DNA of 64,000 bases from a virus (IMGVR_UViG_3300015244_001400:26033-90032), one strand, 5' to 3'; positions 4,632 to 38,600 are shown, counted from the first letter of the stretch. The notes: a model not told the origin generated them from the letters alone. Numbers and translations are program-made.

Positions 4632-6089
4632 ATGGCTACATTAGGAAGCAAGCTTCTCGTAAAAGAGATGGAGTGGAATGCCAACATGACTGAGCAATCT
4701 CATTTAGGAGCAGCTCTGATTGCTAAACCACACCGTATTATGGGGGAGATGGACAAATTGTTCTCGGCTCAAAACTATTATTCTGACAATCCAATGTCTT
4801 CTTTGTTAATGGGTAACTCTAAAACAGAAGAAACTATTGGTAATACAGAATGGGAATGGGAATTAAAAGGTGCAAACACTAGACCTCTAGTTGTTGTAGA
4901 AAATGTTGAAGTTGCTAGCAACTTGACTCCTGGAAAATTCAAAAAAACTTTCAAGATTAAACTTGATGAAAACTGGTATTTACCAGGGGATGTTATTATG
5001 CCAGGTACTTCTAACAAGAAATACCAAGTGCGTATTCAAAACCAAGGTGTTAAGCATGGTGATGGTACAGTTTATACTGTAAGAATGAACTCAGATGACC
5101 CACAAGCTTTTATGCCTGTGAAATATTTGAAACCAGGACAACAATGGGGTAAATTATTCTCTCAATATGAGGAAGCTGCTGAGCAATCAGGTTCAACTGT
5201 ATTCAGTTTGCCACTTGCTTTCAGAAACAGAATGTCTAAGTATCGTAAAGAATACAGAATCACTGACTATGCTTCAACTGAAGTATTGGCTGTAGCTATT
5301 CCTGATTCTAAAGGTGCTTACCACAATTCATGGATGCGTTATGCTGAAGTTGAATATTGGCAACAATGGTACAGAGAAGTAGAACGTGGATATTGGTATT
5401 CAAGATCTGCAGATACTGTATTAGGAGCTAATGGAAGACCAGTAAGAATGGGTCCTGGAATTCAAGAGCAATTAGAAGATTCTCATCAACATAGATATTC
5501 TCACTTAACTGCTAAGTTAATTGAAGAGTACTTACAAGATATTTTCTATTCTAGAGTTAAGCCAGGTCAAGGTCGTCAAATTAAAGGTTTCACAGGAGAG
5601 TATGGTATGTTACAATTCCATAGAGCTATCCAAGATTGGCAAAACAAATCAGGTTTCATTAAGAATGTTGAAGTATATACTAATAAAGTAGCTAGTTCAG
5701 TACACACTAATGCACTTGAAGCAGGTTACCAATTTGTGAAATACAACATGGCAAATGGTGCTTCTCTTGAGTTGATTCACAATCCTCTTTATGATGATAG
5801 AGAAATCAACTTTGAAATTGATGAAGTTACAGGTTTCCCAATTGAGTCTCAAAGAATTACATTCTTAGACTTCTCAGGAGAATCTAAAAACTCTAACATC
5901 AAAATCATGAACAAGAAAGATGGTTTTGCTTTCACTTATGTTGAAGGTATGTATGGTCCTTATGGTCCTAAAAATGGTGGTTCTTCTGCACACTCTGGTT
6001 CTTACTATGAAATGCACGTTGAAAAATCATGTGGTATCCATATCCATGACATCACTAAATGTGGAGAATTGATCTTATCTCGTAACTAA
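4632..6089 (+). CDS. Major capsid protein
   Basis: 485 aa with crAss-type MCP features (EWEWEL, G..MGPGIQEQL, LIHNPLYDD). Codon usage looks high-expression (CGT Arg, TTC, AAC). Followed by a terminator-like hairpin. Confidence 0.88.
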   Translation: MATLGSKLLVKEMEWNANMTEQSHLGAALIAKPHRIMGEMDKLFSAQNYYSDNPMSSLLMGNSKTEETIGNTEWEWELKGANTRPLVVVENVEVASNLTPGKFKKTFKIKLDENWYLPGDVIMPGTSNKKYQVRIQNQGVKHGDGTVYTVRMNSDDPQAFMPVKYLKPGQQWGKLFSQYEEAAEQSGSTVFSLPLAFRNRMSKYRKEYRITDYASTEVLAVAIPDSKGAYHNSWMRYAEVEYWQQWYREVERGYWYSRSADTVLGANGRPVRMGPGIQEQLEDSHQHRYSHLTAKLIEEYLQDIFYSRVKPGQGRQIKGFTGEYGMLQFHRAIQDWQNKSGFIKNVEVYTNKVASSVHTNALEAGYQFVKYNMANGASLELIHNPLYDDREINFEIDEVTGFPIESQRITFLDFSGESKNSNIKIMNKKDGFAFTYVEGMYGPYGPKNGGSSAHSGSYYEMHVEKSCGIHIHDITKCGELILSRN

Positions 6090-6108
6090 GATCCTTATAT
6101 AACTACTA

Positions 6109-6134
6109 AAAAGCTCCTGTAACAAGGAGCTTTT
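6109..6134 (+). terminator. Intrinsic terminator after MCP
   Basis: Perfect 10-bp inverted repeat AAAAGCTCCT-gtaaca-AGGAGCTTTT. Confidence 0.7.
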
Positions 6135-6192
6135 GGTGGTAAAGGGAAAAAGGTTTCCTAAAATAAGTTCAATAATTTAAAAAGAAAAAATT

Positions 6193-6996
6193 ATGGCATC
6201 AGTTAAAGTAGAAGTAAGACCTATTGAGTCAAAAAGATGGCACAACAAAGTAGGACAGGAGTCTTTCACAAGACCCAAAAAAATCCAGGCTTTGGTAGAT
6301 GGTAGCACAATGAAGTATGCTACAGGCCTATCAGACCAGGATATTAAAGATTTAGCTAAGAAAGGAATTACTTATGATTTGTCAGCAAATTATAATTCTG
6401 AAGCACCACACCCATTTTGGGATTCAGGTATGGCAATTATTAAATTAGAGAACAATACTATGTTCTTTGACTCAGACAATGCTTTAGACTTTATTAAAGT
6501 AAAAGTAATGAAAGCAAGTAAGTATGTTGCCAATTCAATGGCAGAATATGATTTAGGTATGTGGCCAGAAGCTACTCATGTTATTTTTGATGAAGCAGAA
6601 CAAGCATCAGTAATGGCTAGTAAAGTAGAGCAAAAAAACACAGCTATTATTGAAGCTTCTAAACTATCATTAGATAGAAAAGTACAATTAATACTAGTAT
6701 TAGGTGGTAAAAATATGAAGAATCAATCTGCAGACTTTGTTGCTGTAGAGTTAGATAAAATCATTACTAAAGATGCAAGTGAATTTTTAAGATATTTGAA
6801 TATGGATAAGAAACAAACTGCAGCACATGCACTTGTTTTAGAAGCTCTTCAAAAATCAGTCTTAAGAAAAGAAGGTCAAAGAATTTTCCACATGGATTCT
6901 CCATTAGGTATTGATGAAATTGAAGTTGCTGAGTATCTTTCAAAAGAAGAGAATCAAGATATTAAAATGTTAATATTGTCTAAGATTAATAACTAA
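6193..6996 (+). CDS. Conserved crAss-like virion protein downstream of MCP
   Basis: 267 aa clean ORF in the head module; assignment by position and general resemblance. Confidence 0.55.
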   Translation: MASVKVEVRPIESKRWHNKVGQESFTRPKKIQALVDGSTMKYATGLSDQDIKDLAKKGITYDLSANYNSEAPHPFWDSGMAIIKLENNTMFFDSDNALDFIKVKVMKASKYVANSMAEYDLGMWPEATHVIFDEAEQASVMASKVEQKNTAIIEASKLSLDRKVQLILVLGGKNMKNQSADFVAVELDKIITKDASEFLRYLNMDKKQTAAHALVLEALQKSVLRKEGQRIFHMDSPLGIDEIEVAEYLSKEENQDIKMLILSKINN

Positions 6997-7001
6997 GAGT
7001 T

Positions 7002-7703
7002 ATGACAACCAGGGAAATGCATTATGACTTCAAACAGAAGTTTAACAAGATAGATAGCCAAAAGAATAAAGGACTTTTAGTTCCTGAGATTGATTGGTTA
7101 TTAAATGAGGCAGCTGAACTATTTGTAAAAAGAGTAGCACAGCCTAAAGTTAATAATGGCCTTGGTTTTGAAATGTCTCAAAGAATAATTGATGATATTA
7201 AAAGTATTGTTATTGGAGGCACTTGGACTCCTGTAGTAAATAATGTAATTGCTCTACCTGCAAACTACTTATATTTTGTAAGATGCAGAGTAAAATTATC
7301 AAAAGGAAATTGTAAAGGAAAAGAAGGAGTTCTTGCCATTAATGAACACAATGAACTTTTTGAAGAGAGTGAATTTTATAGCAGCTCTTTTGAATGGAGA
7401 GAAGTTAATGGAGTTTATGAAACTCAAGGTATCCAATGTTTTACAGATGGAACCTTTACAATAGATGAAGCAAAATTGTCTTATATACGCAAAATGGCTT
7501 ATATGCATAATGCCCAAGATTTTGGTGCAGGAACTTATAACCATCCTTCAGGTGTTACCTTAACAGGTACTGTGAATTGTGATCTCCCAGACCACACCCA
7601 TAGGGAAATTGTGGATATAGCAGTTATGCTTGCTGCAAGTGAAGTGCAAACTTCAGACTTACAAAGTAAAATTGGTAAGTTAGGTTTTAATCAGATTGTT
7701 TAA
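7002..7703 (+). CDS. Head-tail ring / tail tubular-type protein
   Basis: 233 aa. N-terminal helix pattern EIDWLLNEAAELFVK and C-terminal LPDHTHREIVDIAV resemble crAss ring proteins. Confidence 0.6.
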   Translation: MTTREMHYDFKQKFNKIDSQKNKGLLVPEIDWLLNEAAELFVKRVAQPKVNNGLGFEMSQRIIDDIKSIVIGGTWTPVVNNVIALPANYLYFVRCRVKLSKGNCKGKEGVLAINEHNELFEESEFYSSSFEWREVNGVYETQGIQCFTDGTFTIDEAKLSYIRKMAYMHNAQDFGAGTYNHPSGVTLTGTVNCDLPDHTHREIVDIAVMLAASEVQTSDLQSKIGKLGFNQIV

Positions 7704-7720: not shown

Positions 7721-8941
7721 ATGAGTAATCGTAACAATGACGTTTTTCAAGTATTACCTACAAGAGGTAATCAAGCTTTGGCTACAACAGGATCTACTGT
7801 AGATGCTTTATTGCCAGGGCAATTAGGAGTTTTTGATGCTAGCACAGGTTTAGCTTATGCTACTGCAGTACCTGCAGGAACTAAAGCAATTACTTTAGCT
7901 GTTGGTGTTGGTAATGGTTCTGTATTAACAGATATCAGAACTTCTGCTGGTCAATTCATCCAAACTAAAGGTATTACAGATTTAACTTTTAAACCTCATA
8001 CTGCAGGTAGACCTATGAAGGTTACTGTTGGTGGTTTTAAAGCTGAGTGTGATACTGAGTATGGAGTAAGAGTTGAATTCCGTAATGCAAAAATCAACAG
8101 AATCCAAGGATTTAACCAATTCAGCAAAGCTTATATGGTTACAACTCCTTGTTGTGATGATTGTGCTGGAGGATGTGGTTCATTAGATGCTAACGTATTA
8201 ACACAGTTATTTATAGCTAGTATTAATGCTGATGAAGCTAATTTAGTTTTAGCTCAAGCTGTTGCAAGACAAGCTTTAGTAGCTGCTACTCATGGAACTT
8301 CTGTAGACTACGCTGCTGGTGCTGTTATGACTGCTGCTGATGTTGCTGCTTTAATTGTGTTCAACAAAACAGCTTTAGAAGCTAATCAAGTATTTGCTGA
8401 TTTCCAATTAGTAAGTCAACCTTTAGCTATTGGTAACTATTGCTCAATCAACTTACATTACTACAAATTGTTAGAAACAGTTTTAATTGTTTCTTTAATT
8501 GAAGGTTTTGGATGTTCAGGAGCAACTACTGTAAATCAATACCCAGTATTTGAAGAAGGTAGTGGAATCAATATCCAACAAAAAGAGTACCATGCATCAG
8601 GATGGGCAGGTTCAGGACCTTACAAATTGTCTCAAGTAACAGGTATGGGGTATGAAAATATCAACTATCTTTCTGTAAAAGGAACTACTTATGATCAATT
8701 TATTGTTCAGTATAACCAAACTTCTGAATCAGGGTGGCAAGAATACAGTAACGTATTGAGTACTGTAATTGCAATCCCAGAAGCTGACACAGTAACTAGA
8801 CAAGCTGTTGCAACAGTTTTCAATTCTTTCTTATCAGGCTTAGGTTTTGATAGTTTAGTTGATGATGCTGCTGCTGCTAGTACTAATGCTGCTGTAGTAG
8901 AGCCAGAAGTGACTTCTACTGCTACTGATGGTATAGCATAA
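7721..8941 (+). CDS. Abundant virion structural protein (auxiliary capsid/decoration-like)
   Basis: 406 aa, Ala/Thr/Gly-rich, contains PCCDDC. MCP-like high-expression codon usage and followed by a strong terminator. Confidence 0.55.
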   Translation: MSNRNNDVFQVLPTRGNQALATTGSTVDALLPGQLGVFDASTGLAYATAVPAGTKAITLAVGVGNGSVLTDIRTSAGQFIQTKGITDLTFKPHTAGRPMKVTVGGFKAECDTEYGVRVEFRNAKINRIQGFNQFSKAYMVTTPCCDDCAGGCGSLDANVLTQLFIASINADEANLVLAQAVARQALVAATHGTSVDYAAGAVMTAADVAALIVFNKTALEANQVFADFQLVSQPLAIGNYCSINLHYYKLLETVLIVSLIEGFGCSGATTVNQYPVFEEGSGINIQQKEYHASGWAGSGPYKLSQVTGMGYENINYLSVKGTTYDQFIVQYNQTSESGWQEYSNVLSTVIAIPEADTVTRQAVATVFNSFLSGLGFDSLVDDAAAASTNAAVVEPEVTSTATDGIA

Positions 8942-8967: not shown

Positions 8968-9003
8968 AAAACATCTCTATTTTTATAGAGATGTTTTTTT
9001 TAT
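8968..9003 (+). terminator. Intrinsic terminator ending the capsid transcript
   Basis: 13-bp perfect stem AAAACATCTCTAT-tttt-ATAGAGATGTTTT running into further T residues. Confidence 0.8.
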
Positions 9004-9007
9004 TTTG

Positions 9008-9015
9008 TATATTTG
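9008..9015 (+). promoter_or_regulatory. Bacteroidota-type -7 element TATATTTG
   Basis: TAnnTTTG immediately after the terminator and 19 nt before ATG 9035. Confidence 0.55.
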
Positions 9016-9034
9016 ACACTTAAAACACTTTCCC

Positions 9035-10237
9035 ATGGCCTTGAATTACACATACTTAAAATACAAAGATACATATACACTTGAAAATACAGGTACTGTG
9101 AATCTGACTTACCATGTTAGCAAAGTAACTTGTGAAGCAACTACTGAGATAAAAACAGCTGTAATGGTTCCTGGACAGATAACTACTTTAAGTTTTCCTG
9201 TTGATGGAGATTACTCTGTTTATCTAGAGTCTAGTACTCAAGTAGGAATGCCTTTTATCATCAAACACTATAATCACTTACTTATGTCCTTTATCAGTAT
9301 GGTAGAAGGAATTGTATGTGGATGCAGTAAGTGTGATGAATGTGAGGAGTGTAATAAATGTGAGGATTACCTTGGGACACTTTTAAAAGCACAAGCTTTT
9401 AATACTTTAAACTACCCTGTTTACCAAGACTATGTGAATCAAATAACTCAAGATTCTCTTTGTGTGTTTAGTGAAACAGTTCTATGTGGTTTATTACATG
9501 AAAAAGTGTATGGAAATCCTGAAGTAAAAGAGGCTATGTTGAGACTAATTAGTTTTTACTACCTAGCTTTTTACTATCAAGATAAATTTTTAGCTGTAGA
9601 TGCAGAAGAGAAAGCTTATGTTACAGAGAAATATAAGTTTGATAAGATAGCAGCATGTATGAGAAAGTTAGGTATTATACCTACAGACCCTTTATTCATG
9701 ACTACTACCACTACTACTCTTGCTCCTAGTACTACAAGTACTACGACTACTAGTAGTACAACTACTACAACTACACCTCCTAGTAGCACAACTACAACTG
9801 TGCCTCCTAGCAGTACTACAACAACAAGTAGTACTACAACTCAACCTACTACAAGTACTACAACTACTTTAGCACCTTGTGCTTTAGATGGTACTGCAGT
9901 GGAAGTAACAGGTACAACAACTAGCACAAGCACTAGCACAACTACTGCTCCAAGTACTACTACCTCAAGTTCAACAACTTCAACTACTACCACTACTGCT
10001 CCAACCACAAGTACTAGTACTACAACAAGTACAAGTACAACTACGGAACCTCCTTTAGAGTGTATTAGTTATACTTTAAATGCTCCTGGTGTTTCAGGAG
10101 AATATAATCAAGCAGAGTACATAGATTGTGCAGGACAGCCTCAAGTTATAGAAGCTCATGGATATGTTAATGCAACTTTCTGTGCAACTGAAATACTATT
10201 TGGAATGCCTTTTGCAAATGGTACAGGAGGCTGTTAA
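9035..10237 (+). CDS. Cys-rich structural-type protein with mucin-like Thr/Ser/Pro tracts
   Basis: N-terminal ~220 aa folded region (CGCSKCDECEECNKC). Then two T/S/P tracts (about 9701-9877 and 9908-10054) separated by CALDGTAVEV, and a small Cys-containing end domain. Confidence 0.7.
   Translation: MALNYTYLKYKDTYTLENTGTVNLTYHVSKVTCEATTEIKTAVMVPGQITTLSFPVDGDYSVYLESSTQVGMPFIIKHYNHLLMSFISMVEGIVCGCSKCDECEECNKCEDYLGTLLKAQAFNTLNYPVYQDYVNQITQDSLCVFSETVLCGLLHEKVYGNPEVKEAMLRLISFYYLAFYYQDKFLAVDAEEKAYVTEKYKFDKIAACMRKLGIIPTDPLFMTTTTTTLAPSTTSTTTTSSTTTTTTPPSSTTTTVPPSSTTTTSSTTTQPTTSTTTTLAPCALDGTAVEVTGTTTSTSTSTTTAPSTTTSSSTTSTTTTTAPTTSTSTTTSTSTTTEPPLECISYTLNAPGVSGEYNQAEYIDCAGQPQVIEAHGYVNATFCATEILFGMPFANGTGGC
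9701..10054 (+). repeat. Thr/Ser-rich low-complexity coding repeat
   Basis: Encodes runs such as TTTTTTLAPSTTSTTTTSS using mixed ACT/ACA/ACC/AGT codons. Confidence 0.9.
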
Positions 10238-10239
10238 AA

Positions 10240-10638
10240 ATGGTTGAGTTAATTAAAAAGATTGCTGCTTCTAAAGAAGATGTTGTCTTTGTAGGAAGTT
10301 TATGTTTGTGGCATTTGGGTCTGGTAATAGACCCTAGAGACATAGATATAGTTGTTAATAGTTTAGATGGTTTAGAAGAGTTTGGAGAAATAAAATTTTG
10401 GAATACTAAATCTCCTATGAGTGTGAGTAAAAAAAGAGCTCACATAAAAAGAGAAGACTATGATATAGATATTTTTATTGAAGAGACTTTACCAGAGCAC
10501 ACTATGATAAGTGGCATTAAGTTTCAGACTTTAAAAGATTTAAACAACCATATTAACTTGGTTATTAATACTTCTGAAGGACAGCTTAAAAACATAATGA
10601 TTGAAAAGAAAATAAAATATTTTAAACCAAGAATCTAA
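10240..10638 (+). CDS. Minimal Pol-beta-fold nucleotidyltransferase
   Basis: Signature hGS (G19-S20), DID (D34/D36) and a later IDIF strand (D77). Confidence 0.7.
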   Translation: MVELIKKIAASKEDVVFVGSLCLWHLGLVIDPRDIDIVVNSLDGLEEFGEIKFWNTKSPMSVSKKRAHIKREDYDIDIFIEETLPEHTMISGIKFQTLKDLNNHINLVINTSEGQLKNIMIEKKIKYFKPRI

Positions 10639-10650
10639 AACTTACAAGAT

Positions 10651-11877
10651 ATGATAGTCTTAATAACATTGCCAATAGCAGGACCTTCAACAGGACCTTT
10701 TAGCCTTTACTCTAATGTAGATGGTTATACAACTCCTTTTGAAATACAGGTTCCTAAACCACTTTTAGTAGCTGGCTACACTAGTGTTTCAGTACCTGCA
10801 GGAACTACTATAATTCAAGTAAGATCTTTAGGGACTTGTACTAATAGTATTAACTTACCTATTAACTTATTAGGGACTAGTACAACTACTACATCAACAA
10901 GTACTACTACTGCCCCTACAACCACAACAACAACTGTACCTACTACTACTACAAGTAGCACCACAACTAGCACTAGTACAACTACAGTTCCTACAACAAC
11001 TACTAGCACTACTACTGTAGCTCCTATGGTATTAGAATTATATGGACCTTGTAATGAGACAACTGAATATGTTGCATATAATGCAGCTTTAACATCTTTA
11101 CCTGGAGTTTATACTGCTACAAATGGTTTTCCTTATGAAGTAGTTAGTGCAACTCCTGTGAGTGGTACTGCCACAGTTGTTATTACTGATTTATCAAATT
11201 ATGATAACTTAAACAATTGGCTAACAATTAACTTAGCTTGTCCTGGAGGAACCACTAGTACTAGTACTAGTACAACTAGTACTACTACTACAGTTGCACC
11301 AACAACTACCACAACAACCACTAGTACTACCACAACAACTGAGGCTCCTACCACAACAACTACTACACAAGCCCCAGCTGCTTGTAGTGAATTAGAAATA
11401 TACCCTCCACTTACACCAGGAACTACTCACACAGTAGTGTTCTTGACTTGTGAATGGGGTACTCAAGAAACAATTAATATTCCTTATGGAGGAACTATGG
11501 GTTCTATCTGTGTTCAACCTGGAGGAGTAATTTCAGATAATGGCTCTGCAGTTAATGCAATGACATATCCTACTCAAATGGTTTGTATAGGTAACACTAC
11601 TACAACTACTACAACAACTACTACTCCACCTCCTGCAAATAACTACAGCTTTTTCCGTTGTTCAGGAACTGGTATAGCTAGTGTAGTTGTAAGTGAAGCT
11701 TCTTTAATTAATGCAGGTATGGCACCAGGAGCAATTCTTAGTTCAATGAACACTATAGAAATAACAGGTTCAGGTAATGTAAATAGTTGCTATAGTTTTG
11801 ATGACATGACTTCTGCTTCTCTTACAGGTCCAAGTGTTGTAAGCTTTGATCAATGTGAGTGTTTAAGTCCAGCATAA
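10651..11877 (+). CDS. Mucin-like Thr-rich protein with Cys-paired small domains
   Basis: N-terminal beta domain (GPFSLYSNVDGYTTPF...CTNSINL). Three Thr tracts alternate with small Cys-containing domains. Confidence 0.75.
   Translation: MIVLITLPIAGPSTGPFSLYSNVDGYTTPFEIQVPKPLLVAGYTSVSVPAGTTIIQVRSLGTCTNSINLPINLLGTSTTTTSTSTTTAPTTTTTTVPTTTTSSTTTSTSTTTVPTTTTSTTTVAPMVLELYGPCNETTEYVAYNAALTSLPGVYTATNGFPYEVVSATPVSGTATVVITDLSNYDNLNNWLTINLACPGGTTSTSTSTTSTTTTVAPTTTTTTTSTTTTTEAPTTTTTTQAPAACSELEIYPPLTPGTTHTVVFLTCEWGTQETINIPYGGTMGSICVQPGGVISDNGSAVNAMTYPTQMVCIGNTTTTTTTTTTPPPANNYSFFRCSGTGIASVVVSEASLINAGMAPGAILSSMNTIEITGSGNVNSCYSFDDMTSASLTGPSVVSFDQCECLSPA
10876..11634 (+). repeat. Three Thr/Ser/Pro tracts (about 10876-11025, 11251-11376, 11596-11634)
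   Basis: Direct translation, e.g. TSTTTTSTSTTTAPTTTTTTVPTTTT. Confidence 0.9.
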
Positions 11878-11878
11878 T

Positions 11879-12805
11879 ATGAGATATGTATGTGCACAAC
11901 CTGCTTCAAGTTTTTACACTTGGCAAGTAGAAGTAGTTATAAATAACTTTAAAAAACAGGGTGTCAATCCTAATAAAATTGACATCCTTTGTGCAATAAA
12001 TGATAATGTAGTTCCTGAAGAATGGAGAAAATTACAAAATCATTATAATACAGTTAGGTTCTTTTTTTACAATGATACTAGAGCAGATAAGAGTTATATA
12101 CCTTCTATCTACTTTAATCTAATGAGTAACCACATGAAAGCTAATCCTGACTTAATAGGCCAAAGGTTATTCTTACATGATAGTGATATAATCTTTACTA
12201 GAACTCCAGAAGTGGATTGGGCAATGCCAGGTAAAGTTTGGTACTTAAGTGATACTAACTCTTACATCAACTATGATTACATCCAACAAAAAGGTAATCA
12301 TATTTATGAAGATATGTGTGAGATTGTAGGTATAGATAAGTTGATACCTAAATTAATGAATAGTCATTCAGGAGGAGCCCAGTATATTACTGTTGGAGAA
12401 ACTTCTGAATTTTGGGATAAAATAGAGAGTGATAGTGTCAAACTTTATTCTTACTTTTGTAAAACAGAACATCTCTACAATAAAAAGTTTGAAGGAGATT
12501 TTCCTATCCAAAAATGGACTGCAGGGATGTGGGCCTTTCTTTGGAATATTTGGTTAAAAGGTCATGAAACAAAAGTGGATTCTAGACTTAATTTTGGTTG
12601 GAGTACTGATCATGTTTCTTCAGTAGAAAAGTATTGGATACTACACAATGCAGGTGTGTCTGCAACAGATAAAAACATGTTCTTCAAAGGTAATTACATA
12701 CAGGAGTTACCATATAATAAAGAACTAGTTGTAGATGAAAACAGAGCCAGTTCTTACTATTGGAAGGAAATTCAAGAGACAAGTAAACAAACAATATTAA
12801 TATAG
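11879..12805 (+). CDS. GT-A glycosyltransferase, GT95/GT96 (HPAT/SERGT)-like
   Basis: DxD motif LHDSDII (D101-D103). Ordered motifs FYTWQ, YIPS, SGG and WTAGMW parallel YFDWQ, YPAIN, LDADMII, VGG and WISEMY of plant peptidyl-serine galactosyltransferase as recalled. GT-A call is firmer than the family call. Confidence 0.7.
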   Translation: MRYVCAQPASSFYTWQVEVVINNFKKQGVNPNKIDILCAINDNVVPEEWRKLQNHYNTVRFFFYNDTRADKSYIPSIYFNLMSNHMKANPDLIGQRLFLHDSDIIFTRTPEVDWAMPGKVWYLSDTNSYINYDYIQQKGNHIYEDMCEIVGIDKLIPKLMNSHSGGAQYITVGETSEFWDKIESDSVKLYSYFCKTEHLYNKKFEGDFPIQKWTAGMWAFLWNIWLKGHETKVDSRLNFGWSTDHVSSVEKYWILHNAGVSATDKNMFFKGNYIQELPYNKELVVDENRASSYYWKEIQETSKQTILI

Positions 12806-12810
12806 TAATC

Positions 12811-13338
12811 ATGCAAGAATTACAAAAGATAAGGAGAGACATAGCCTGGCTTATAGAGCAAACTAAATGTCTTACCCAAGAGAGTAACTTAGAGTCTCCT
12901 TTGGTGGCTACTGAGTGGTCTCCTAATCATTCTGTGGCAACAGGTAATCCTTACATCTTAGGTTGTTTTGTTTGGTTTCAAGGTCATGTATATCAAAGTC
13001 TGATGGATGACAATTCCTTTCCTCCTACTAATGATTGTTATTGGACAGACTTAGGAGAAGGACATTTATTGTTAGAAGAGCAATCTGATTGGAATGCTAC
13101 TACAGGTAGACCTTTTATTAGAAACAAGCCTATCATTATTAATGATAAGACTTACATACACAATCAAGTAGTAGCTTCTGCTTCTTGGTTAGTGCAACAT
13201 GATTTAAACAAATATCCTTCAGTTTCCATAGTGGACTCTGGAGACAATGTAGTTATAGGGGACATTCAGTATATTGATTTAAACAATATTTTGATTACCT
13301 TTACATCTACATTTTCAGGAAAAGCATACTTTAACTAA
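12811..13338 (+). CDS. Small fibre/adaptor protein with a CBM5/12-like module
   Basis: EWSPNHS...YILGCFVWFQGHVYQSL...PP...W resembles chitin-binding-type CBM5/12 modules. C-terminal WLVQHDLNKYPSVSIVD domain is common in phage fibres. Confidence 0.5.
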   Translation: MQELQKIRRDIAWLIEQTKCLTQESNLESPLVATEWSPNHSVATGNPYILGCFVWFQGHVYQSLMDDNSFPPTNDCYWTDLGEGHLLLEEQSDWNATTGRPFIRNKPIIINDKTYIHNQVVASASWLVQHDLNKYPSVSIVDSGDNVVIGDIQYIDLNNILITFTSTFSGKAYFN

Positions 13339-13352
13339 AAAACAATAAGATC

Positions 13353-14744
13353 ATGATTTACTTAAGTAATCTCAATTTAAGCAAGAATCAATTACAGAAT
13401 GCTGTAATTCATCCTTTGGGTACAGCCCCAGCTAGTCCAGTAGAAGGACAACTTTACTATAACTCTTCTGCAGGAGTTAAGATGCTATATGTTTATAATG
13501 GGACTGCTTGGGTACCTGTTGGAGATATAACAGCTATCTCTTCTACAGAGTCAAGACTTATTGTAACTAATGGTACAACAGGAGATGTATCTTTATCTCT
13601 AGATATTGCAACAGTTGTTGCTAATGGAGGTACAGGACTTGTTACTGCTGATTTACTATATGACTATGTAGCTGGATTAGATGCTGTCTATTCTATTACT
13701 GCAGGTACAGGTATATCTGTTACAGGTACAAGTACAGACCCTATCATTACAAATACTGACTTAGGTTCTTCTCAAGCTATCTTTAAAAACATAGCAGTAG
13801 CAGGACAAAGTACAGTTGTAGCTGATAGTAACAATGATACTCTTACAATAGCAGCAGGAGGTAATGTAACAATTACAACTAATGCTACTACAGATACTGT
13901 TACAATCTCTTCAACAGATACTAACACTACTTATGATTTAACTAATAGTGCTACTGCAGGAGGTTCTGCAATCTTGTTAACTGGTTCTGATCTTTCTCAA
14001 GATTCTGTGACTATTGTAGGTACTACTAATGAAATTGAGGTGACTCATGCAGCAGGTTCTATCACAGTAGGTTTACCTAACAACGTAACCATAACAGGTA
14101 ACTTAACAGTAATTGGTACTACCACTACAAACAATGTAGAAACTGTATCAACTTCTAATGGAGTTATCTTTGAAGGTAATGCTGCTGATGCTAATGAATT
14201 AACTTTAATAGCAGGTACATTAACTGCTGACCAAGTAATTACTTTACCAGATGCAACAGGTACAATAGCTTTATTAAGTAATATTGGTAATGGTACTCTT
14301 ACAGTTACTGCAGGTACTGCAATGTCAGGAGGAGGTTCTTTTACAGCTAACCAATCAGGTAACAGTTCTGTAACAATTAACCATGCTGCTGTATCAAGAA
14401 CAAATAACACTAGTTCTGCTTCTCCAGGAGTTGGAGGTAGTTTCACAGTTATTGACACTGTAACAACTTCAACTGAAGGACACATCACAGCAGTTAATAC
14501 TAAAACAATTACTTTACCAGCTAATAGTGCTACTTCTTTTGCTACTACAATTTCTGTATCAGGGACTGTTACACATGGTTTAAGTACAAAAGATGTGATA
14601 GTACAATTATATGACACATCAACAAATGAAACAGTTTATGCTGATGTAGTGAGAGTAAATACAGCTCCTTACAACACAATAACAGTTACTTTTGGAAATG
14701 CACCAGCAAATCCAATTAGAGTTTTAGTTTCTAAAATAGGATAA
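13353..14744 (+). CDS. Tail fibre / spike protein
   Basis: 463 aa, T/G/A-rich beta repeats (ITAGTGISVTG, ITGNLTVIGTTTT). C-terminal VTHGLSTKDVIVQLYD domain resembles the end of the previous ORF. Confidence 0.7.
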   Translation: MIYLSNLNLSKNQLQNAVIHPLGTAPASPVEGQLYYNSSAGVKMLYVYNGTAWVPVGDITAISSTESRLIVTNGTTGDVSLSLDIATVVANGGTGLVTADLLYDYVAGLDAVYSITAGTGISVTGTSTDPIITNTDLGSSQAIFKNIAVAGQSTVVADSNNDTLTIAAGGNVTITTNATTDTVTISSTDTNTTYDLTNSATAGGSAILLTGSDLSQDSVTIVGTTNEIEVTHAAGSITVGLPNNVTITGNLTVIGTTTTNNVETVSTSNGVIFEGNAADANELTLIAGTLTADQVITLPDATGTIALLSNIGNGTLTVTAGTAMSGGGSFTANQSGNSSVTINHAAVSRTNNTSSASPGVGGSFTVIDTVTTSTEGHITAVNTKTITLPANSATSFATTISVSGTVTHGLSTKDVIVQLYDTSTNETVYADVVRVNTAPYNTITVTFGNAPANPIRVLVSKIG

Positions 14745-14769
14745 TACATCCTTAAATTAATAGATTGAT

Positions 14770-17700
14770 ATGTCTCAAAAATTTAAAAGTGAAGTAGAAC
14801 TTCAAGCTTTAAATGCTGCTACCACAGATACTGATAAATTCTTAGTATCTGATGGTGGCATCATTAAGTTTAGAACAGGGGCTGAGATGTTATCTGACTT
14901 AGGTGTGGCACCTGGAGTAGCCTCTAATATTCAACATCAAGTAAAAGCAGGAGTAGCAATAAATAAAGGACAAGCAGTGTATGTATCTTCAGCAGATGGT
15001 ACTAATATGATTGTGTCTTTAGCTTCTAATGCTACAGAAGCAACCTCATCAAAAACAATGGGGTTATTGGCAGACACTGTTGCTATAAATGGTTTTTCTA
15101 ATGTTATAGCTGAAGGTTTACTTGCAGGATTAGACACATCTACTGCAGTGGCAGGAGACCCTGTTTGGTTAGGCACAGGTGGAAACCTTATTTATGGTTT
15201 AGCTAATAAACCTTATGCACCAGCTCACTTAGTGTTTATTGGGATTGTAACTAGAGTCAATGTTAATAATGGAGAAATCTTTGTAAAGGTCCAAAATGGA
15301 TTTGAACTTGATGAACTTCATGATGTAGATGTAAAAAGCTTAACTCCTGTTAGTGGACACCTTTTAGGATTTAATGGCAACTTATGGGTAAATAAAACTA
15401 TTGCAGGTTGGTTAGGATATACCCCTGCAAATTCAGTACACAACCATGATGATAGGTATTATACAGAAACAGAATCAGACTCAAGATTTGTAAATGTTAC
15501 TGGAGATACAATGACAGGCACACTTCAAATTAATGGTAGTTGGGCAACAACTATATTAGATGGAGACAATGTTGTTGTAAGAAAACCTAACTATCCTTCA
15601 GGAGGTTGGGCAAGAGCTTTACTTAATTTTCAAGAATATACTGGTACATCTTTGTATCAAATAGGTGCTTATGGTAGTGCCAATACCTATACTTATGGTT
15701 ATTTAGGTGTAGGTTATAATGACACTGTTATAAAATGGTATCCTAATAAAGAAGTAATTTTTGACAACGTTATAAAAGCCCCTACCTTTTCTGACTCAAA
15801 CAATACTGCTTATTATTTAGATCCTGCTGCTATGTCTAACATACATAACATAACAGCAACTTCTTTTATAAAATCAGGAGGCACTTCTGCTCAAATATTA
15901 GCAGCAGATGGGTCTGTAATTACAGCAGGTACAAATATCACTATAAGTGGAGGAGTAATATCCTCTACAGGAGGAGCCTCTTATACCCTTCCTACAGCTA
16001 CAAGTACTGTACTAGGAGGAATTGAACTATTTAGTGACACAGTACAGACAGTTGCAGCAAACACTGTTTCAACAACTGCTTCAAGAACTTATGGTTTACA
16101 ATTAAACGCAGCAGGACAAGCTGTTGTAAATGTGCCTTGGGTTGACACAAACACAGTGTACACTCATCCTGCTTATACAACAAGAAGTATAGATACATCA
16201 GGAGCACAAGTTATTGATATCTTTACTTCAGATGCTATAGGTAGTGTAACAAACATTACTACTAGAACAATGACATTAGGAGATCTTGGATATACAGGAG
16301 CTACTAATGCTAATTACTATGTACTACCTTTTACAGATAACTCTGCTAACTGGAATACAGCATACTCATGGGGTAACCATGCTGGGTTATATGCTTCTTC
16401 TTCACATACACATACCTTTGACTCTTTAACTGCTAAGACATCAGGTACAGGTACTTATCAAACTACAGGAGAGTTTATACAAAATAATGGTAAATATGTT
16501 AGAGACAGTTACTACAGAACTATAAGTGGAAGAAGTGATCTTTATTCTGGAGGTTCTGAAGGATGGTATACTGCTGCTCAAGTAACTTTAACAAGTAATT
16601 GTAGTGGAGCTGTATTATATGGTACACTTAATGACCATAGATATAATGGTGCTGACTCTTATCAAATAGCTGTAGTAGCTAGAGCTGAATGTGATTTTGA
16701 TACTAATAACCAATCTCACTATGTGAATGTTGGTTGTACAATTCTTGGTAGTACAAACTACACTAACTATAGAAGTAAGATAAGAGTAGTTTTAACTACT
16801 TCAACTACTAACAATAGAACTTACCAATTACAATTTTTTGAAACTGCTTGGAATAATGATACTTGGCAATTAGAAACTAATGGTTGGACAATCTATAATT
16901 CTCCACAAACAGCTTCTGCTCAAGTAGGGACACCTTTAGTAAACTATGTGTCTAATCAAAATGCAGATTATCAAAGAGCAAATACAGCTACATACTCACC
17001 TATATTTTATGACAATGATAATACAGCATACTACTTAAATCCAAATGGAACTAGTAATCTTTACATTGTAAATGCTACTTATTATTTAGTTACTCCTACA
17101 ATATATAGTGGTGGAGGTAGTGTGTCTTTTGGAAATGATGTACAACTTAGTGGTAATTATTTAAGATTTGATGAGAATGGAGTTAGATCTTGGAATCAAA
17201 GAGCTACAGGAGGTAATTTAGTTTTAAACAGTGGAGATGGTAATGGAAATCTTGTTGTAAATGGTAATGCAATAATTCATTCAGGTAATATTGGAAGTCA
17301 GTCTGTAAGTTATGCAACTTCAGCTGGAAATGCTGATACATTAGATGGGTTACACGCTTCATCATTTTTGACTAGCTATTCTGAAACTGACACGTTATTA
17401 ACAGTAACTGGAAGAGGAAATACTACTACTACTCAAATAGGAGCTGTTAACTTTTTTGACACAAATGTAGGGACTTATAATGTTAACTTAGGTTCAGGAG
17501 GTTCAGAAGGAAGAGGTTTAGTGGCAGGGTATTCAGGAGGTTCCTATGGAGGTATTGGATATAATGTTAGACATACTACTACAGGAGGAAATTGGATTGC
17601 TCCTGGTACAGATACTTCAACTTATTTATTGTTTACAGCAGGAGGGTTTTCTTTCCTAGGAGCAGGAGCAGGAGCTGCTGGAAGAACTTTATCTTACACC

Positions 17701-18882
17701 ACTTTAGGAAGCCTTAATAGTGGAGGCCTTTATGTACCAATAATGTATGATTCAAATAATACAGGATACTTTTGTGACCCTACTAGTACCTCTAACTTAG
17801 TTGGATTAACAGTAACTAACACAATCAGTGGTAATATAACAGGAAATTCAGGTACTGTATCTAGTATTACAAACATAACAGGATTAATGGTTAACAAGTT
17901 AGCTGCTCCTGCACTGATTGATACACTTACAACTGCTAACTTTAGAAGTACTTTATTTGGGACAACAGCTAATGGTTATCAAATATCAGCAGCTAGATGG
18001 AATACAACACCAGCACCTTTAGGAGGTTTAGGCTCTTATGGTACTATGCTTTCTTGGTCAGGTAGTGATACGCATGGTTTTATAGCTATGGATTATTCTG
18101 CAGCTGCCCTTAGAGTTGGAGGAGGAAATGCAAACAATATTAACTGGACTAGACAAGTAATTATAGAAGACACTTGGGTAAATAGTAAGTATCTTGCATC
18201 AGATGGAAGATTCTATGGTACTATATACTATGATGCAAATGATTCTGCATACTGGGTAGATCCTGCCAGTTCAACAACTTCTGCAAATTTTCTTTCTAAG
18301 ATAACTATACAAGGAGGTTCTAATAGCAATACTACTATAGCACAAGCTGTTAATAGTTATGGAAGTCCTTCTTTAAGTGCTTACTATGGGACTTTATATA
18401 GCTCTAATATATTTTATGCTGGAAATCCTACAGGTACAGCTTATAATGTATATGGAGCTGATGCTCAATTTTATACTTACTATGATAGAAATAATACTGC
18501 TTATTACTTTGATGGTAGTAACACAGGAGATTCTATTAGAGTTGCAGGAGACATTGTAGCTTACTATTCTGATGACAGATTAAAAGATAGAAAAGGAAAT
18601 ATTGAAAATGCAATAGAAAAAGTTTTATCTTTGAATGGTTTTTACTATGAGGCAAATCAAAAAGCTCAAGAGTTAGGATACAAAAAGAAAATGGAAATAG
18701 GGGTATCTGCTCAAGAAGTAGAGGCTATTCTTCCTGAATTAATAAAGGATGCTCCTATAGGACAAGGTTATAAGACTTTAGACTATGGAAGATTAACACC
18801 TTTATTAATTGAAGCTATTAAAGAGCAACAAAAACAAATTGAAGAATTAAAAGAATTAGTAAATAAATTAATCACTAAATAA
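14770..18882 (+). CDS. Long tail fibre with C-terminal intramolecular chaperone (Peptidase_S74)
   Basis: C-terminus YYSDDRLK...GVSAQEVEAILPEL...DYGRLTPLLIEAIKEQQKQIEEL is the S74 signature. Internal YDxNNTAYYxDP repeats. Confidence 0.85.
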   Translation: MSQKFKSEVELQALNAATTDTDKFLVSDGGIIKFRTGAEMLSDLGVAPGVASNIQHQVKAGVAINKGQAVYVSSADGTNMIVSLASNATEATSSKTMGLLADTVAINGFSNVIAEGLLAGLDTSTAVAGDPVWLGTGGNLIYGLANKPYAPAHLVFIGIVTRVNVNNGEIFVKVQNGFELDELHDVDVKSLTPVSGHLLGFNGNLWVNKTIAGWLGYTPANSVHNHDDRYYTETESDSRFVNVTGDTMTGTLQINGSWATTILDGDNVVVRKPNYPSGGWARALLNFQEYTGTSLYQIGAYGSANTYTYGYLGVGYNDTVIKWYPNKEVIFDNVIKAPTFSDSNNTAYYLDPAAMSNIHNITATSFIKSGGTSAQILAADGSVITAGTNITISGGVISSTGGASYTLPTATSTVLGGIELFSDTVQTVAANTVSTTASRTYGLQLNAAGQAVVNVPWVDTNTVYTHPAYTTRSIDTSGAQVIDIFTSDAIGSVTNITTRTMTLGDLGYTGATNANYYVLPFTDNSANWNTAYSWGNHAGLYASSSHTHTFDSLTAKTSGTGTYQTTGEFIQNNGKYVRDSYYRTISGRSDLYSGGSEGWYTAAQVTLTSNCSGAVLYGTLNDHRYNGADSYQIAVVARAECDFDTNNQSHYVNVGCTILGSTNYTNYRSKIRVVLTTSTTNNRTYQLQFFETAWNNDTWQLETNGWTIYNSPQTASAQVGTPLVNYVSNQNADYQRANTATYSPIFYDNDNTAYYLNPNGTSNLYIVNATYYLVTPTIYSGGGSVSFGNDVQLSGNYLRFDENGVRSWNQRATGGNLVLNSGDGNGNLVVNGNAIIHSGNIGSQSVSYATSAGNADTLDGLHASSFLTSYSETDTLLTVTGRGNTTTTQIGAVNFFDTNVGTYNVNLGSGGSEGRGLVAGYSGGSYGGIGYNVRHTTTGGNWIAPGTDTSTYLLFTAGGFSFLGAGAGAAGRTLSYTTLGSLNSGGLYVPIMYDSNNTGYFCDPTSTSNLVGLTVTNTISGNITGNSGTVSSITNITGLMVNKLAAPALIDTLTTANFRSTLFGTTANGYQISAARWNTTPAPLGGLGSYGTMLSWSGSDTHGFIAMDYSAAALRVGGGNANNINWTRQVIIEDTWVNSKYLASDGRFYGTIYYDANDSAYWVDPASSTTSANFLSKITIQGGSNSNTTIAQAVNSYGSPSLSAYYGTLYSSNIFYAGNPTGTAYNVYGADAQFYTYYDRNNTAYYFDGSNTGDSIRVAGDIVAYYSDDRLKDRKGNIENAIEKVLSLNGFYYEANQKAQELGYKKKMEIGVSAQEVEAILPELIKDAPIGQGYKTLDYGRLTPLLIEAIKEQQKQIEELKELVNKLITK

Positions 18883-35622: not shown

Positions 35623-38600
35623 ATGTTTCCACCAAAAAAAAATCTAAGCAAATTTGCTCAAGCAAAACAAGAGTTACAACAAGGAGATGAAGGTATTGCT
35701 GCTGGAGCAGGAACTGAAACAGGTGTAGGACTAAGTTTTGAAGAGTTAAGATCTCAAAGTACTTCTCAAAATAATGTTAGTACTCAGTTGCTTTCTACTT
35801 TTGTAGATAAAGGAGAAAGAGATAAGATTGAGTACGAAAATTCTCAGGCTAGAAAAGAAATGGAAAGACTTGCTAAAGAGCAAGCTGTACAAAAAGACAG
35901 AGTCTATTCTAAAGTTGCTGAAAAAAATGGTATAGATAAAGCTATAGGCTTAATGGATACAGCTTCAAAACTTAGAGAGTTAGAAGAAAAAGATTTTTTT
36001 ACTTCTTACTCTAAATATGCAGATGACTTTATCAGTTCAAAAGGTATAAATGTTGCAAAACCACTAATAGCTGTTGGAGGTTTTATTGCTCATGCTTACA
36101 ATGATATGTTCAATGATACTAGATTAGGTCTTACTAAAGCAGAACAAAAAGAGTATGATAATCTTTCTAGTCAACAAAGAAAAGAATTACAACCTGCTTT
36201 AACAGAACTTAAGACTCAATATGAACAAGAGTTAAAAAAAGCTGAAGCAAGAAGAAAACAAGCTGTGGTAGCTAATACTAAATCTGCTGACTATATAAAA
36301 TGGCAAAATGATCAAGCAAAGGCTTTAAGAAAAGATTTAGTTTCTGGTCCTGGGCCTTCTAAAGATGAGCTTCTTGCTACTAGAACTGCTATAAAGTATG
36401 AAGATTTAATTGCTCAGATTGATGATTATGCTTCAGGTAATGCTGGTTTTTGGGATGGATTTGGTTCTCAGAAAAAAGATGTTCTCACACTGGGTTTATA
36501 CAGTATGGGAGATGCTCTAACTGTTGCTGATATTAAAGATAAGGCAGACAGAATCTACAAGGAAAAAGCTCTTAATAGTAAAAACATAAACTACAGACCT
36601 AAAGAAAGTCTAACAGAAAATGAACAATCTTTATTAGAAGCTGAAGGTCATGTTCAAGAATTGTCTGCTAAAAATTTATTTGAAAACAAATTAGGTTATA
36701 CTTGGGGAACAGGTGTAGCTCAATCTACTGTTTTTATGGAAGCTACTTTACTTACAGGAGGTTTTGGAGGAGCTGTAGAATCCACAGTAGCTAATGCTAT
36801 TGTAAAAGAATCTGCTAAAGCTACTTTAAGACAAGCTTGGAAACAAGGGGGAACTAAATTATTATTATCTAACTTAGGTGCTAAATCTGTTGGAGGTCTT
36901 GCTAATGTAGGAGTGACTTCTTTATTGGCACCAGGTACTTACACTATGGCTGCTAAAGCTAAAACAGGTAATATGGAATTTATTACTGATGAAAATGGTA
37001 AACAAAAACTTTTAGTAGGGCAAGAAAGATATGATCATTATAAGAAAGATTTTAGTAAAAAATCAGACCTTATAAAATATGATATTGATGAATTAGAGAA
37101 AAAAGAAAAAAGATCTGACAAAGAAGAAGAAAGATTAGAAGGTCTTAAATCAAGTTTACAGAATATTACTGATGAATTTGACACTTTGTATAAACCAAAC
37201 AATTGGGGAGAGTCTTTATGGTATGGGTATAGTGAGACAGTAAAGGAAAACTTTTCTGAGAAATATGTAGGGGCTGCTTTACCAGGTCTTTCTAACAATA
37301 TGCTAATGAGAAACTTAGCTAAAACACAAATAGGAGGCAAAATTGCTAAAGGAATTACAGCTACTACTAATGATTTTGCTCAGAGTAGTTTAGGTAAAAC
37401 TTTAAGTGCTCCTATCAAAGGGTACAACTACACTAGAAATCTTGTAAACAACTTGTCTTTAGGAAAGCTTTCAGGTAATGCTGTTGCTCATACAGGTAAG
37501 GCTAGTTTAATTCATAGTCTTCCTGGGGAGATTGCTGAAGAGATTTGGAACCAATTCATGCCTACTTATAAACAAGACTATGCAGAACAATTAGAAACTC
37601 TGAAAGATAGTTCTTTCTATAGAGATACTATTGCTCAAACTTTAATTCAAGGGGTTGCTTTTGGAGGAATTGGTATGGTAGGTAGAGGAAGAAACTACAT
37701 GAATGATAAAGCTAGATTAAGAGAAATGTACAAAGCTCTTGATGCTTCTATCACAGATGATGATGTTGCTAATAACATTCTTATGAATACTGGAGGAACT
37801 ATCTATAGCCCTTTAGATTATGACCATAAGATTATGCAATTAAGAAAAGAAAACACTACAGATTCTCATACTAAAGCTGATAGACTTGAACAAAACAAGT
37901 TTACTAATTTAGCTGCTATGGCAATTAGAACAGGTACTGTAGATTCTTTTAAAAAGAATCTAGAGTCTATTCAAAATAAGCCTGATGTAAGTCTTACTAC
38001 CAAACAAAACATTGCTTTAGCTACTGCTAGAATTGATGGTTTAATGGAAGTGTATAACAAACACTCTGAAAAAGATAATTTTGCAACTATCTTTAATTTA
38101 TCAGAAAGAAAATTAGCTAATGATCAAACTGTAAAGGTTATTGATGAAGAGTTAATGAAACAAAAAGAAGGGGCTAAAGAAGATATTGATGCTTTTATCT
38201 TAAGAAAAGGACTAAAGATTGATTATGATATTGACACTCTTTTAACTAAAGAAGAATTTGAATCTCCTGAGCAAGAAAAAGAATACACTAATTTTATTCA
38301 AGCCTTAAGTGAAGAGAATCTTACAAGAGTAAACTTGTTTGGAGGACTTCTTATGGAAAAAGCTGGTTTCCAAATGGATAACAGTGAATTGAATAAACAA
38401 ATAAATGATCAGACTAGTCCTGAGTATGAAGAGAGAGTAGAAAATAAAAAAGGTATTGAACAAGTTTATGAAAAAACTTTACAAGATTACCAAAAATCTA
38501 TAATCACTTCTGAGACTTCAGTCTTTAATTACAACAATCAATTGGAAGAAACTCCTGAATTGGTTGATGAAGCTATGGACAGAGTTAAGAAACAATACAA

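Follow-up and report, generated by a model that had tools for sequence, protein, structure and literature searches.

A GT8-like glycosyltransferase family coupled to threonine tracts in phage proteins: a candidate system for virion O-glycosylation

Introduction

Why does a phage carry the gene for a small glycosyltransferase directly beside genes for proteins with long runs of threonine? The question is raised by a 64,000-nucleotide (nt) stretch of viral DNA (IMGVR_UViG_3300015244_001400:26033-90032; "the window" denotes this whole stretch), taken from an IMG/VR virus record of 90,032 bp whose completeness is estimated at 96%. Judged by its sequence, the source genome is a Crassvirales phage. 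On the + strand of the window, four open reading frames (ORFs) lie close-packed after a terminator, with intergenic gaps of 1–12 nt (lengths in amino acids, aa):

9035-10237, + strand: T1, Thr-tract protein, 400 aa
10240-10638, + strand: minimal pol-beta-type nucleotidyltransferase, 132 aa
10651-11877, + strand: T2, multi-tract Thr protein, 408 aa
11879-12805, + strand: GT-A glycosyltransferase, GT8-like, 308 aa, with its DxD motif at nt 12179-12187

An initial annotation of this DNA had described such a cassette, and all four ORFs were found at the coordinates and on the strand it gave. Its two mucin-like neighbours are likewise borne out, T1 having two and T2 three Thr/Ser/Pro tracts. We conclude that the glycosyltransferase, below simply "the enzyme", probably O-glycosylates proteins in the cytoplasm, with the poly-Thr/Ser tracts of T1 and T2 as its acceptors. 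The observations behind this view, described in the following sections, are its fold, the conservation of catalytic-type residues, the order of the genes and a tight coupling in evolution between enzyme and Thr tracts.

Results

Co-occurrence of the enzyme with Thr tracts in viral loci

The viral set consists of 80 IMG/VR loci found through the enzyme at 57–88% identity, at most 80 loci having been sampled per query. A Thr-tract ORF is present in 72 of them. Among the 75 loci with at least 600 nt of upstream sequence, 53 have a tract ORF that ends no more than 120 nt before the enzyme start, on the same strand. Counted per kilobase upstream of the enzyme, tract ORFs number 46, 25, 14 and 13 over the first four kilobases (98 in total); the whole 10 kb downstream holds 7. 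Any other gene in common with the window is found in only about 12 of the 80 loci. The partner tract proteins include tail-tube-like as well as large baseplate- or fibre-like proteins, and a masked all-against-all comparison places them in 18 clusters, two of them large, joined by shared small domains, so that the 80 enzyme loci are not fully independent. As a background, we counted 4 tract ORFs in 1.47 Mb without the enzyme versus 39 in 0.27 Mb with it, which corresponds to about 3 per Mb versus about 140–170 per Mb.

The same comparison was made among close relatives of the phage itself, using 29 Crassvirales sequences found via the capsid protein (78–99% identity, at least 6 kb downstream). 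Thr tracts occur in 4 of 4 relatives with the enzyme versus 0 of 25 without it, a pattern that the trees of the capsid and neighbouring genes reduce to two label changes. A homologue of the T1 N-terminal domain, tract-less, 228–364 aa long and in the same position, is kept in 20 of the 25 enzyme-less relatives.

The initial annotation had seen the key signal in the adjacency of enzyme and substrates, with the phage glycosylating its own Thr-tract proteins in the cytoplasm. This co-occurrence strongly supports that proposal: the enzyme goes with Thr tracts in unrelated lineages, and the contrary situation, a glycosyltransferase found mostly without Thr-tract partners, was looked for and is not what the 80 loci display.

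Poly-Thr tails in Bacillota phages

A scan of prokaryotic genomes, with one genome per species, yielded 80 further enzyme-family loci. In Bacillota prophages among them, a capsid protein, a small protein of about 105 aa and a tail-tube protein each bear a poly-Thr tail. The tail-tube family of Bacillota siphophages allows a direct comparison: a poly-Thr C-terminal tail is present in 17 of 17 proteins with the enzyme and in 0 of 57 without it, the ends of the latter being short, for example ...YPxxxPEGA. When the tube-protein core is placed on a tree, the enzyme label switches 10 times, and well-supported branches force at least 4 of these switches; each time, the tract label switches too. The coupling covers at least 4 independent gains or losses.

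Cultured phages carry the pairing as well, and several of them make the idea directly testable. In Enterococcus phiFL1A, poly-Thr tails are found on gp45, the putative capsid protein, and on gp50, the major tail protein, which is directly followed by the enzyme, gp51. The capsid and tail proteins of Lactobacillus iLp84 are poly-Thr-tailed, and a further Thr-tract ORF lies just ahead of the enzyme. Staphylococcus RQ1 and Arcanobacterium TPWB06 have poly-Thr tails on proteins encoded beside the enzyme, and Chryseobacterium MA9V-3 has internal Thr tracts in both ORFs upstream of it. The association is looser in Clostridium phiCTP1, where the Thr-tailed ORF lies about 3.4 kb upstream of the enzyme and is not adjacent, and in Enterococcus Planchet, whose tail-tube tail is weakly Thr-rich. 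In Lactobacillus Semele, the poly-Thr-tailed partner beside the enzyme is a 117-aa FN3-like protein encoded among replication genes.

Two further features were seen in RQ1 and TPWB06. In the major tail protein of each (L085:5229-5931 and L088:5164-5926, respectively), the C-terminus is a short poly-Thr run; just before the enzyme gene, an overlapping ORF of a different frame carries on with a Thr tract of about 70 residues in RQ1 or about 45 in TPWB06. This ORF pair could reflect programmed frameshifting, by which the tail-tube protein would be made in a short and a long glycosylatable form, or slippage or an assembly error in the ACn repeat. Internal poly-Thr tracts are also found in head maturation protease/scaffold-region proteins of RQ1 (L085:3-500) and TPWB06 (L088:918-2039); tracts are thus not confined to surface-exposed subunits.

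Fold and family of the enzyme

The AlphaFold model of the enzyme, made with 40 homologues, has a predicted local distance difference test (pLDDT) score of 95.8 and a predicted template modelling (pTM) score of 0.91, and it confidently predicts a single Rossmann-like α/β/α domain of the GT-A type. Foldseek returned 268 PDB chains at E ≤ 0.001, the top ones all being GT-A enzymes; LARGE1, XXYLT1, UGGT, glycogenin, LgtC and α-1,3-galactosyltransferase were matched with E-values of 5e-7 to 1e-5. Alignment with VIA-align gave Z-scores of 14.5 for glycogenin (root-mean-square deviation 3.7, 224 residues aligned), 14.5 for the Skp1 α-galactosyltransferase, 14.3 for LgtC and 13.6 for GlyE (PDB 5gvv, 216 residues aligned). 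GlyE, by which pneumococci glycosylate a serine-rich repeat adhesin, ranks with the best structural matches. More distant, with a Z-score of 11.5, is A64R (PDB 2p6w), a chlorovirus enzyme that glycosylates the capsid. According to the model, the closest structural group is thus that of the retaining GT8-type enzymes, at Z-scores of about 14.

The residues expected of such an enzyme are conserved. Asp101 and Asp103 are invariant in 40 close homologues; in 50 distant homologues of 30–55% identity, Asp103 is invariant and Asp101 at least 90% conserved. In the model, the DxD motif sits as L-H-D101-S-D103 right after the strand formed by residues 97–100. His256, Gly259 and Lys270 are invariant down to 30% identity, and His256, within the sequence I-L-H-N-A-G, is a candidate counterpart of His244 in LgtC and His212 in glycogenin. 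Inspection of the enzyme sequence by eye revealed neither a signal peptide nor an evident membrane segment.

By sequence, the enzyme belongs to PHROG 4417 (phrog_4417, E 2.8e-68), a family without functional annotation. One search counted 1,894 clusters of it at 90% identity, and at 50% identity it has at least 959 representatives. The enzyme has no Pfam hit at E ≤ 1, and NCBIfam has no match for any cassette protein. Searches of the PDB sequences with the enzyme, using phmmer and the family profile, gave only chance matches to VirA at E of about 0.4 and no GT8 chain. A scan of the whole genome with PF01501 (Glyco_transf_8) found nothing, and control genomes did match; more broadly, no GT2, GT1/4 or GT8 Pfam model matches anywhere in this 96%-complete genome. 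The enzyme therefore looks like the only glycosyltransferase of the phage, and is for the same reason probably an initiating one.

The initial annotation had called this protein a DxD glycosyltransferase resembling GT95/GT96 enzymes. The first half of that description is upheld by the confident GT-A fold and the invariant Asp103; in the Foldseek comparison that it had suggested, however, GT8-type retaining enzymes came out closest, and a GT95 resemblance is not seen for this protein itself. The Pfam model HPAT (PF23452, GT95) does not match the window enzyme and matches only 2 of 50 relatives weakly, with a best E-value of 1.3e-4. The HPAT and DUF6492 models match nothing in the window genome, a scan that for HPAT has little power because its control also matched nowhere. 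Any link of the family to GT95 is accordingly faint in these sequences, and the enzyme is GT8-like by fold and a member of no named family by sequence.

Relatives of the enzyme occur in fusions with domains of the GT2, GT6, sugar-binding DXD, methyltransferase and radical-SAM/SPASM types, as we would expect for a glycan-building enzyme. The fusion proteins read (P0121, P0007, P0136, P0154, P0203) include a radical SAM plus SPASM protein of 658 aa, SAM methyltransferases of 481 and 779 aa, a GT2 plus sugar-binding DXD protein of 1161 aa and a GT6 protein of 992 aa; these architectures suggest that other phages make glycans of greater complexity, which may be methylated. Two distant family representatives are encoded on contigs of only 2–3 kb, too short for gene context.

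The Thr-tract proteins T1 and T2

Between them, T1 and T2 carry five Thr/Ser/Pro tracts of 17–57 residues each, and no other ORF of the 90,032-bp genome has such tracts. In T1, an N-terminal domain (aa 1–222) is followed by two tracts, aa 223–279 and 291–341 (nt 9701-9871 and 9905-10057), and a small Cys-containing C-terminal domain. T2 consists of four small globular domains with the tracts between them, at aa 74–125, 198–239 and 314–330 (nt 10870-11025, 11242-11367 and 11590-11640). Tract length differs between strains: a related strain from a 2017 aquatic metagenome, mostly 90–95% identical, has a 15-nt in-frame insertion at 10030 in a T1 tract, which encodes five extra Thr/Ser residues, and a 3-nt deletion at 10940 in a T2 tract. 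Minus-strand ORFs encoding poly-Val that overlie the Thr tracts were set aside as mirror artefacts.

T1 matches phrog_15330 (E 1.8e-11). The model of its N-terminal domain (pLDDT 85.5) predicts an Ig/FN3-like sandwich followed by a Cys-rich helical bundle. Fold searches gave only generic Ig/FN3 matches for residues 1–80, with Z-scores up to 9.6, and no match for the helical bundle; matches this generic are evidence neither for nor against virion membership. A tblastn search of 50,697 phage records with the T1 N-terminal domain found no match. The N-terminal domain of T2 recurs in 18 of 83 compared loci, and a structure search of T2 in the Atlas, made with a poor model, returned only viral hypothetical look-alikes. 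We propose T1 and T2 as the substrates of glycosylation. They would be located in the virion, because of their genome position, because fibre genes fill the same interval in relatives, and because the partners in other lineages are structural proteins.

Enzyme relatives on bacterial chromosomes

About 30 of the loci from the prokaryotic scan lie on chromosomes of Chitinophaga, Pedobacter, Mucilaginibacter and Sphingobacterium. At five of these, read closely, a protein of about 575 aa has the enzyme as its N-terminal half, and the GT2-type C-terminal half was confirmed in L190. The coordinates are as follows:

L183:3787-10940
L188:4179-4373
L190:3508-12525
L227:3948-4175
L229:4497-9728

At the three loci whose neighbours were scanned, the enzyme sits in lanthipeptide clusters, among genes for a LanB-type dehydratase, a LanC-like protein, a radical SAM protein, an ABC exporter with a C39 peptidase and HlyD. 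Small Thr-rich ORFs occur at four loci, and those of L183, L188 and L190 combine a GG-type leader motif with a C-terminal tail rich in Thr and Pro, which makes them candidate O-glycosylated lanthipeptides. The presence of the family in peptide-maturation clusters fits a peptide O-glycosyltransferase. Taken together, its co-occurrence with Thr tracts in several unrelated phage lineages and in bacterial clusters for ribosomally synthesized and post-translationally modified peptides lends strong support to the reading of neighbouring genes as enzyme and substrate.

The nucleotidyltransferase

The second gene of the cassette encodes, in line with the initial annotation, a predicted minimal nucleotidyltransferase: Gly19-Ser20, Asp34-Ile-Asp36 and Asp77 are invariant in 23 homologues, in a G..DxD..D pattern. 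It has no Pfam, NCBIfam or PDB sequence hit; structural matches in the Atlas to the catalytic domains of AbiEii, ANT(2'') and poly(A) polymerase, with template modelling scores of 0.70–0.76, are leads only. As a conserved member of the cassette it fails, however, since it is found in only 4 of the 80 enzyme loci and is missing from relatives with a 98% identical capsid protein. A scan for homologues by exact pattern gave none, and an alignment-based scan gave 8 viral loci, in 6 of which Thr-tract ORFs directly adjoin the homologue. In five IMG/VR loci (L332-L336), the homologue, at 6001-6390, ends arrays of up to four Thr-tract genes. From these loci, the nucleotidyltransferase appears to be an accessory gene with its own link to Thr tracts and no part of the cassette core; it may add a second modification, which the pair of enzyme and Thr tracts does not need. 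We also considered it as a sugar-activating enzyme and rejected this, since sugar-1-phosphate nucleotidyltransferases have a different, GT-A-like fold, unlike this 132-aa pol-beta-type domain.

Genome setting and transcription

The surroundings of the cassette include:

8968..8997, + strand: terminator-like hairpin with a 13-bp stem, a 4-nt loop and a T run, ending the capsid-proximal operon
9009..9016, + strand: TATATTTG, putative promoter that fits the Bacteroidota −7 element
12811..18882, + strand: fibre genes for proteins of 175, 463 and 1370 aa, with Peptidase_S74 and PHROG matches

The ORF at 4632-6089 matches the crassvirus major capsid protein (Crass_capsid, profile match, E 4e-162), that at 24023-25045 matches tail ring protein 1, and the upstream ORF at 7002-7703 has a weak ring-3/4-like match. 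Downstream, the genes at 12811..18882 have PHROG matches to fibre-type C-terminal domains, and the 1370-aa protein (14770-18882) contains a Peptidase_S74 endosialidase-chaperone domain (E 3.7e-8), which places the cassette inside an appendage module. The earlier placing of the cassette between capsid and fibre modules, with Crass_capsid on one side and the S74 fibre gene on the other, is thus correct, and so is the terminator ahead of it. Its promoter-like motif stands in part. The consensus of the Bacteroidota −7 promoter element is TAnnTTTG, and TATATTTG at 9009-9016, which agrees with it, may be a −7-type element; in a sigma-70 promoter scan, sites were no commoner than in shuffled sequences.

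In the enzyme-less relatives L096, L112, L126 and L130, other fibre-like genes fill the interval about 3–9 kb after the capsid gene, several of them carrying collagen-like GPQGP repeats; as read from these sequences, the cassette interval is a hypervariable appendage module between conserved genes. A blastn search of 50,697 phage records with the cassette gave zero matches, and the sequencing runs that contain window sequence are for the most part freshwater metagenomes. Elsewhere in the window, 35623-48810 is a single ORF of 4395 aa, probably the giant virion-packaged protein typical of crAss-like phages.

Contigs of two metatranscriptome runs from one source study cover T1, T2 and the junction between T2 and the enzyme, and one RNA-library contig (11208-11947) joins T2 to the enzyme gene. 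RNA contigs end at 8922/8939 and restart at 9122, and DNA contigs run through the terminator, a weak indication that comes from the one study. In the same two runs, summed contig depth was 150–330 over the 406-aa gene at 7721-8941 and 0–90 after the terminator; contig depth is a poor measure, and the drop fits a strongly expressed upstream gene combined with partial termination.

Discussion

Proposed mechanism

A soluble, DxD/metal-dependent GT-A enzyme would work in the cytoplasm of the infected cell and move a sugar from a nucleotide-sugar onto the Thr/Ser hydroxyls of the T1 and T2 tracts. The linkage would be a retained α-linkage formed from a UDP-sugar, as the GT8-like fold suggests. Mucin-like linkers would result, covered with glycans, stiff and resistant to proteases, which join the small globular domains of appendage proteins; the benefit would lie in shielding, spacing or adhesion. 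Acceptor, chemistry, virion location and benefit are in this scheme what we infer from the fold, the gene order and the coupling with Thr tracts.

Seen across the family, the chances are about even that a wider picture holds in all its parts together. PHROG 4417 would then consist of dedicated poly-Thr peptide/protein O-glycosyltransferases, with which phages of at least three bacterial phyla equip their capsids, tail tubes and fibres with mucin-like glycan brushes; enzyme and Thr tracts would form a module of two parts that evolution adds or removes as a unit; in Chitinophagaceae and Sphingobacteriaceae, a GT2-fused version of the enzyme would glycosylate lanthipeptides; and the tracts would have another, independent modifier in the small nucleotidyltransferase family.

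Alternative explanations

T1 and T2 might be glycosylated and yet not be virion parts, as abundant late proteins that are released by lysis or displayed otherwise, for example soluble mucin-like decoys or matrix-binding factors. Neither matches any solved virion protein, and the Semele partner is a small FN3-like protein encoded near replication genes, both of which would suit such a role. We nevertheless consider it unlikely: the cassette lies between ring/capsid-proximal and fibre genes, the position of the T1 N-terminal domain is fixed in relatives with fibre genes flanking it, and the Bacillota partners are annotated capsid and tail-tube proteins. A different enzyme could also be at work. 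The tracts might be modified chiefly by the nucleotidyltransferase, through O-nucleotidylylation or by passing on a phospho-group from an activated donor, in which case the glycosyltransferase would follow as a second step or have a different target. The nucleotidyltransferase has an intact catalytic triad, its structural leads include enzymes that adenylylate sugar hydroxyls, and in five of the six loci where tract ORFs adjoin it no glycosyltransferase was found on the contig. This reading has little to commend it, however, given that the gene is absent from 76 of the 80 enzyme loci and from all Bacillota cases, and that a glycosyltransferase may lie elsewhere in those genomes, the contigs being 6–65% complete.

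The Thr tracts could also be plain flexible linkers, adjacent to the enzyme only through a shared variable region, and the acceptor could be DNA, a host envelope glycan or a lipid. Phage glycosyltransferases commonly modify DNA or host O-antigen (PMC12619734), and the Semele enzyme gene sits near replication genes. We hold this to be quite improbable, because tracts appear on otherwise tract-less homologues only in company with the enzyme, in at least three unrelated protein families; enzyme and tract genes abut on the same strand; members of the family are found, too, in clusters for peptide maturation whose precursors are Thr-rich; and the enzyme has no evident membrane segment. It seems just as remote that the enzyme merely elongates a host-placed sugar, or primes itself as glycogenin does. 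Its closest folds do include the elongating GlyE, XXYLT1 and LARGE1 as well as self-glucosylating glycogenin. Yet no other GT2, GT1/4 or GT8 Pfam match was found in the genome, and general O-glycosylation in Bacteroidota is periplasmic, beyond the reach of cytoplasmic phage proteins. The same pairing of enzyme and tract in hosts of different phyla argues, moreover, against reliance on one host initiator.

Several points weigh against the proposed role of the enzyme as a protein O-glycosyltransferase for the tracts of T1 and T2. A literature search found no glycan, glycoprotein or activity reported for any member of the family; nor did it find, with most subscription journals outside its coverage, a description of the enzyme family, of the Bacillota poly-Thr tails or of glycosylation in Crassvirales. 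We infer the virion location of T1 and T2 from genome context, and neither protein has detectable similarity to solved virion proteins. Five viral loci with upstream sequence have no Thr tracts, the roughly 30 chromosomal loci in Chitinophaga, Pedobacter, Mucilaginibacter and Sphingobacterium have no long tracts nearby, and five of the six loci in which tract ORFs adjoin a nucleotidyltransferase homologue show no glycosyltransferase on contigs that are 6–65% complete. The sequences within each comparison are related, so that the raw two-by-two counts overstate independence, and with two label changes the Crassvirales comparison counts as two events, not 29. The RNA-library contigs fit a cassette transcribed as a unit of its own; since DNA can be present in RNA libraries, these contigs do not prove its transcription.

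If the proposed glycosylation is real, sugar-coated virions would be common, among freshwater Crassvirales, among enterococcal, staphylococcal, lactobacillar and clostridial phages, and in Herelleviridae. There would be consequences for phage therapy, through immunogenicity, clearance and mucus adherence, for the ecology of dairy and gut phages, and for the reading of cryo-EM maps, which do not show such tails. A simple sequence rule would follow, in which a poly-Thr tract together with the enzyme predicts a glycosylated phage protein, and the enzyme, being compact and soluble, could serve to produce mucin-like glycoproteins in bacterial cells.

Comparison with known systems

The enzyme shares with GT8 (glycogenin, LgtC), GT24 (UGGT) and GT6 a common GT-A fold and a DxD motif after the fourth strand, and its invariant His256 may correspond to their conserved C-terminal His; against GT8 and related retaining families, Z-scores are 13.5–14.5 over 215–246 aligned residues. 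Sequence identity to these families is only 6–13%, and neither PF01501 nor any PDB sequence is matched even with the family profile. Plant HPAT enzymes (GT95) are hydroxyproline O-arabinosyltransferases that start glycosylation on Pro/Ser-rich, extensin-type tracts. They differ from the phage enzyme in acceptor residue and sugar, and are Golgi membrane proteins. A64R of chlorovirus PBCV-1 is likewise a viral GT-A enzyme that acts on the virus's own capsid protein in the cytoplasm; PBCV-1 differs from the window phage, however, in its eukaryotic algal host and its lack of Thr tracts, and its capsid glycans are N-linked at atypical sites.

In the serine-rich repeat adhesin system of Gram-positive cocci (GtfA/B plus GT8 enzymes such as GlyE), long Ser/Thr-rich repeats are also O-glycosylated in the cytoplasm, before export. 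There, a GT-B pair places the first sugar and the GT8 enzymes only elongate. In the window genome, by contrast, no second enzyme is recognizable, and the substrates would be dominated by Thr instead of Ser.

To our knowledge, glycosylation of phage particles has been documented only in actinobacteriophages so far, and there it influences recognition by antibodies. Among established systems, virion glycosylation in mycobacteriophages comes closest: phage-encoded glycosyltransferases modify the phages' own structural proteins, according to PMC12619734 and PMC13313380 (citing Freeman et al. 2023, Cell Host Microbe 31:1216), and the glycans are reported in PMC12619734 to lie at the C-termini of capsid and tail-tube subunits. 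The Bacillota members of the present family resemble that system in having poly-Thr tails on capsid and tail-tube proteins. A tblastn search with the enzyme (E ≤ 1e-5) matched 77 phage records, no Mycobacterium phage among them, so that the enzyme family differs from the mycobacteriophage enzymes. The hosts differ too, being of Bacteroidota type for the Crassvirales and Bacillota for the others, and the tracts of the window are long internal linkers in multi-domain, putative appendage proteins and not short C-terminal tails. Relative to mycobacteriophage virion glycosylation, then, the enzyme family, the hosts and the internal-linker architecture are different.

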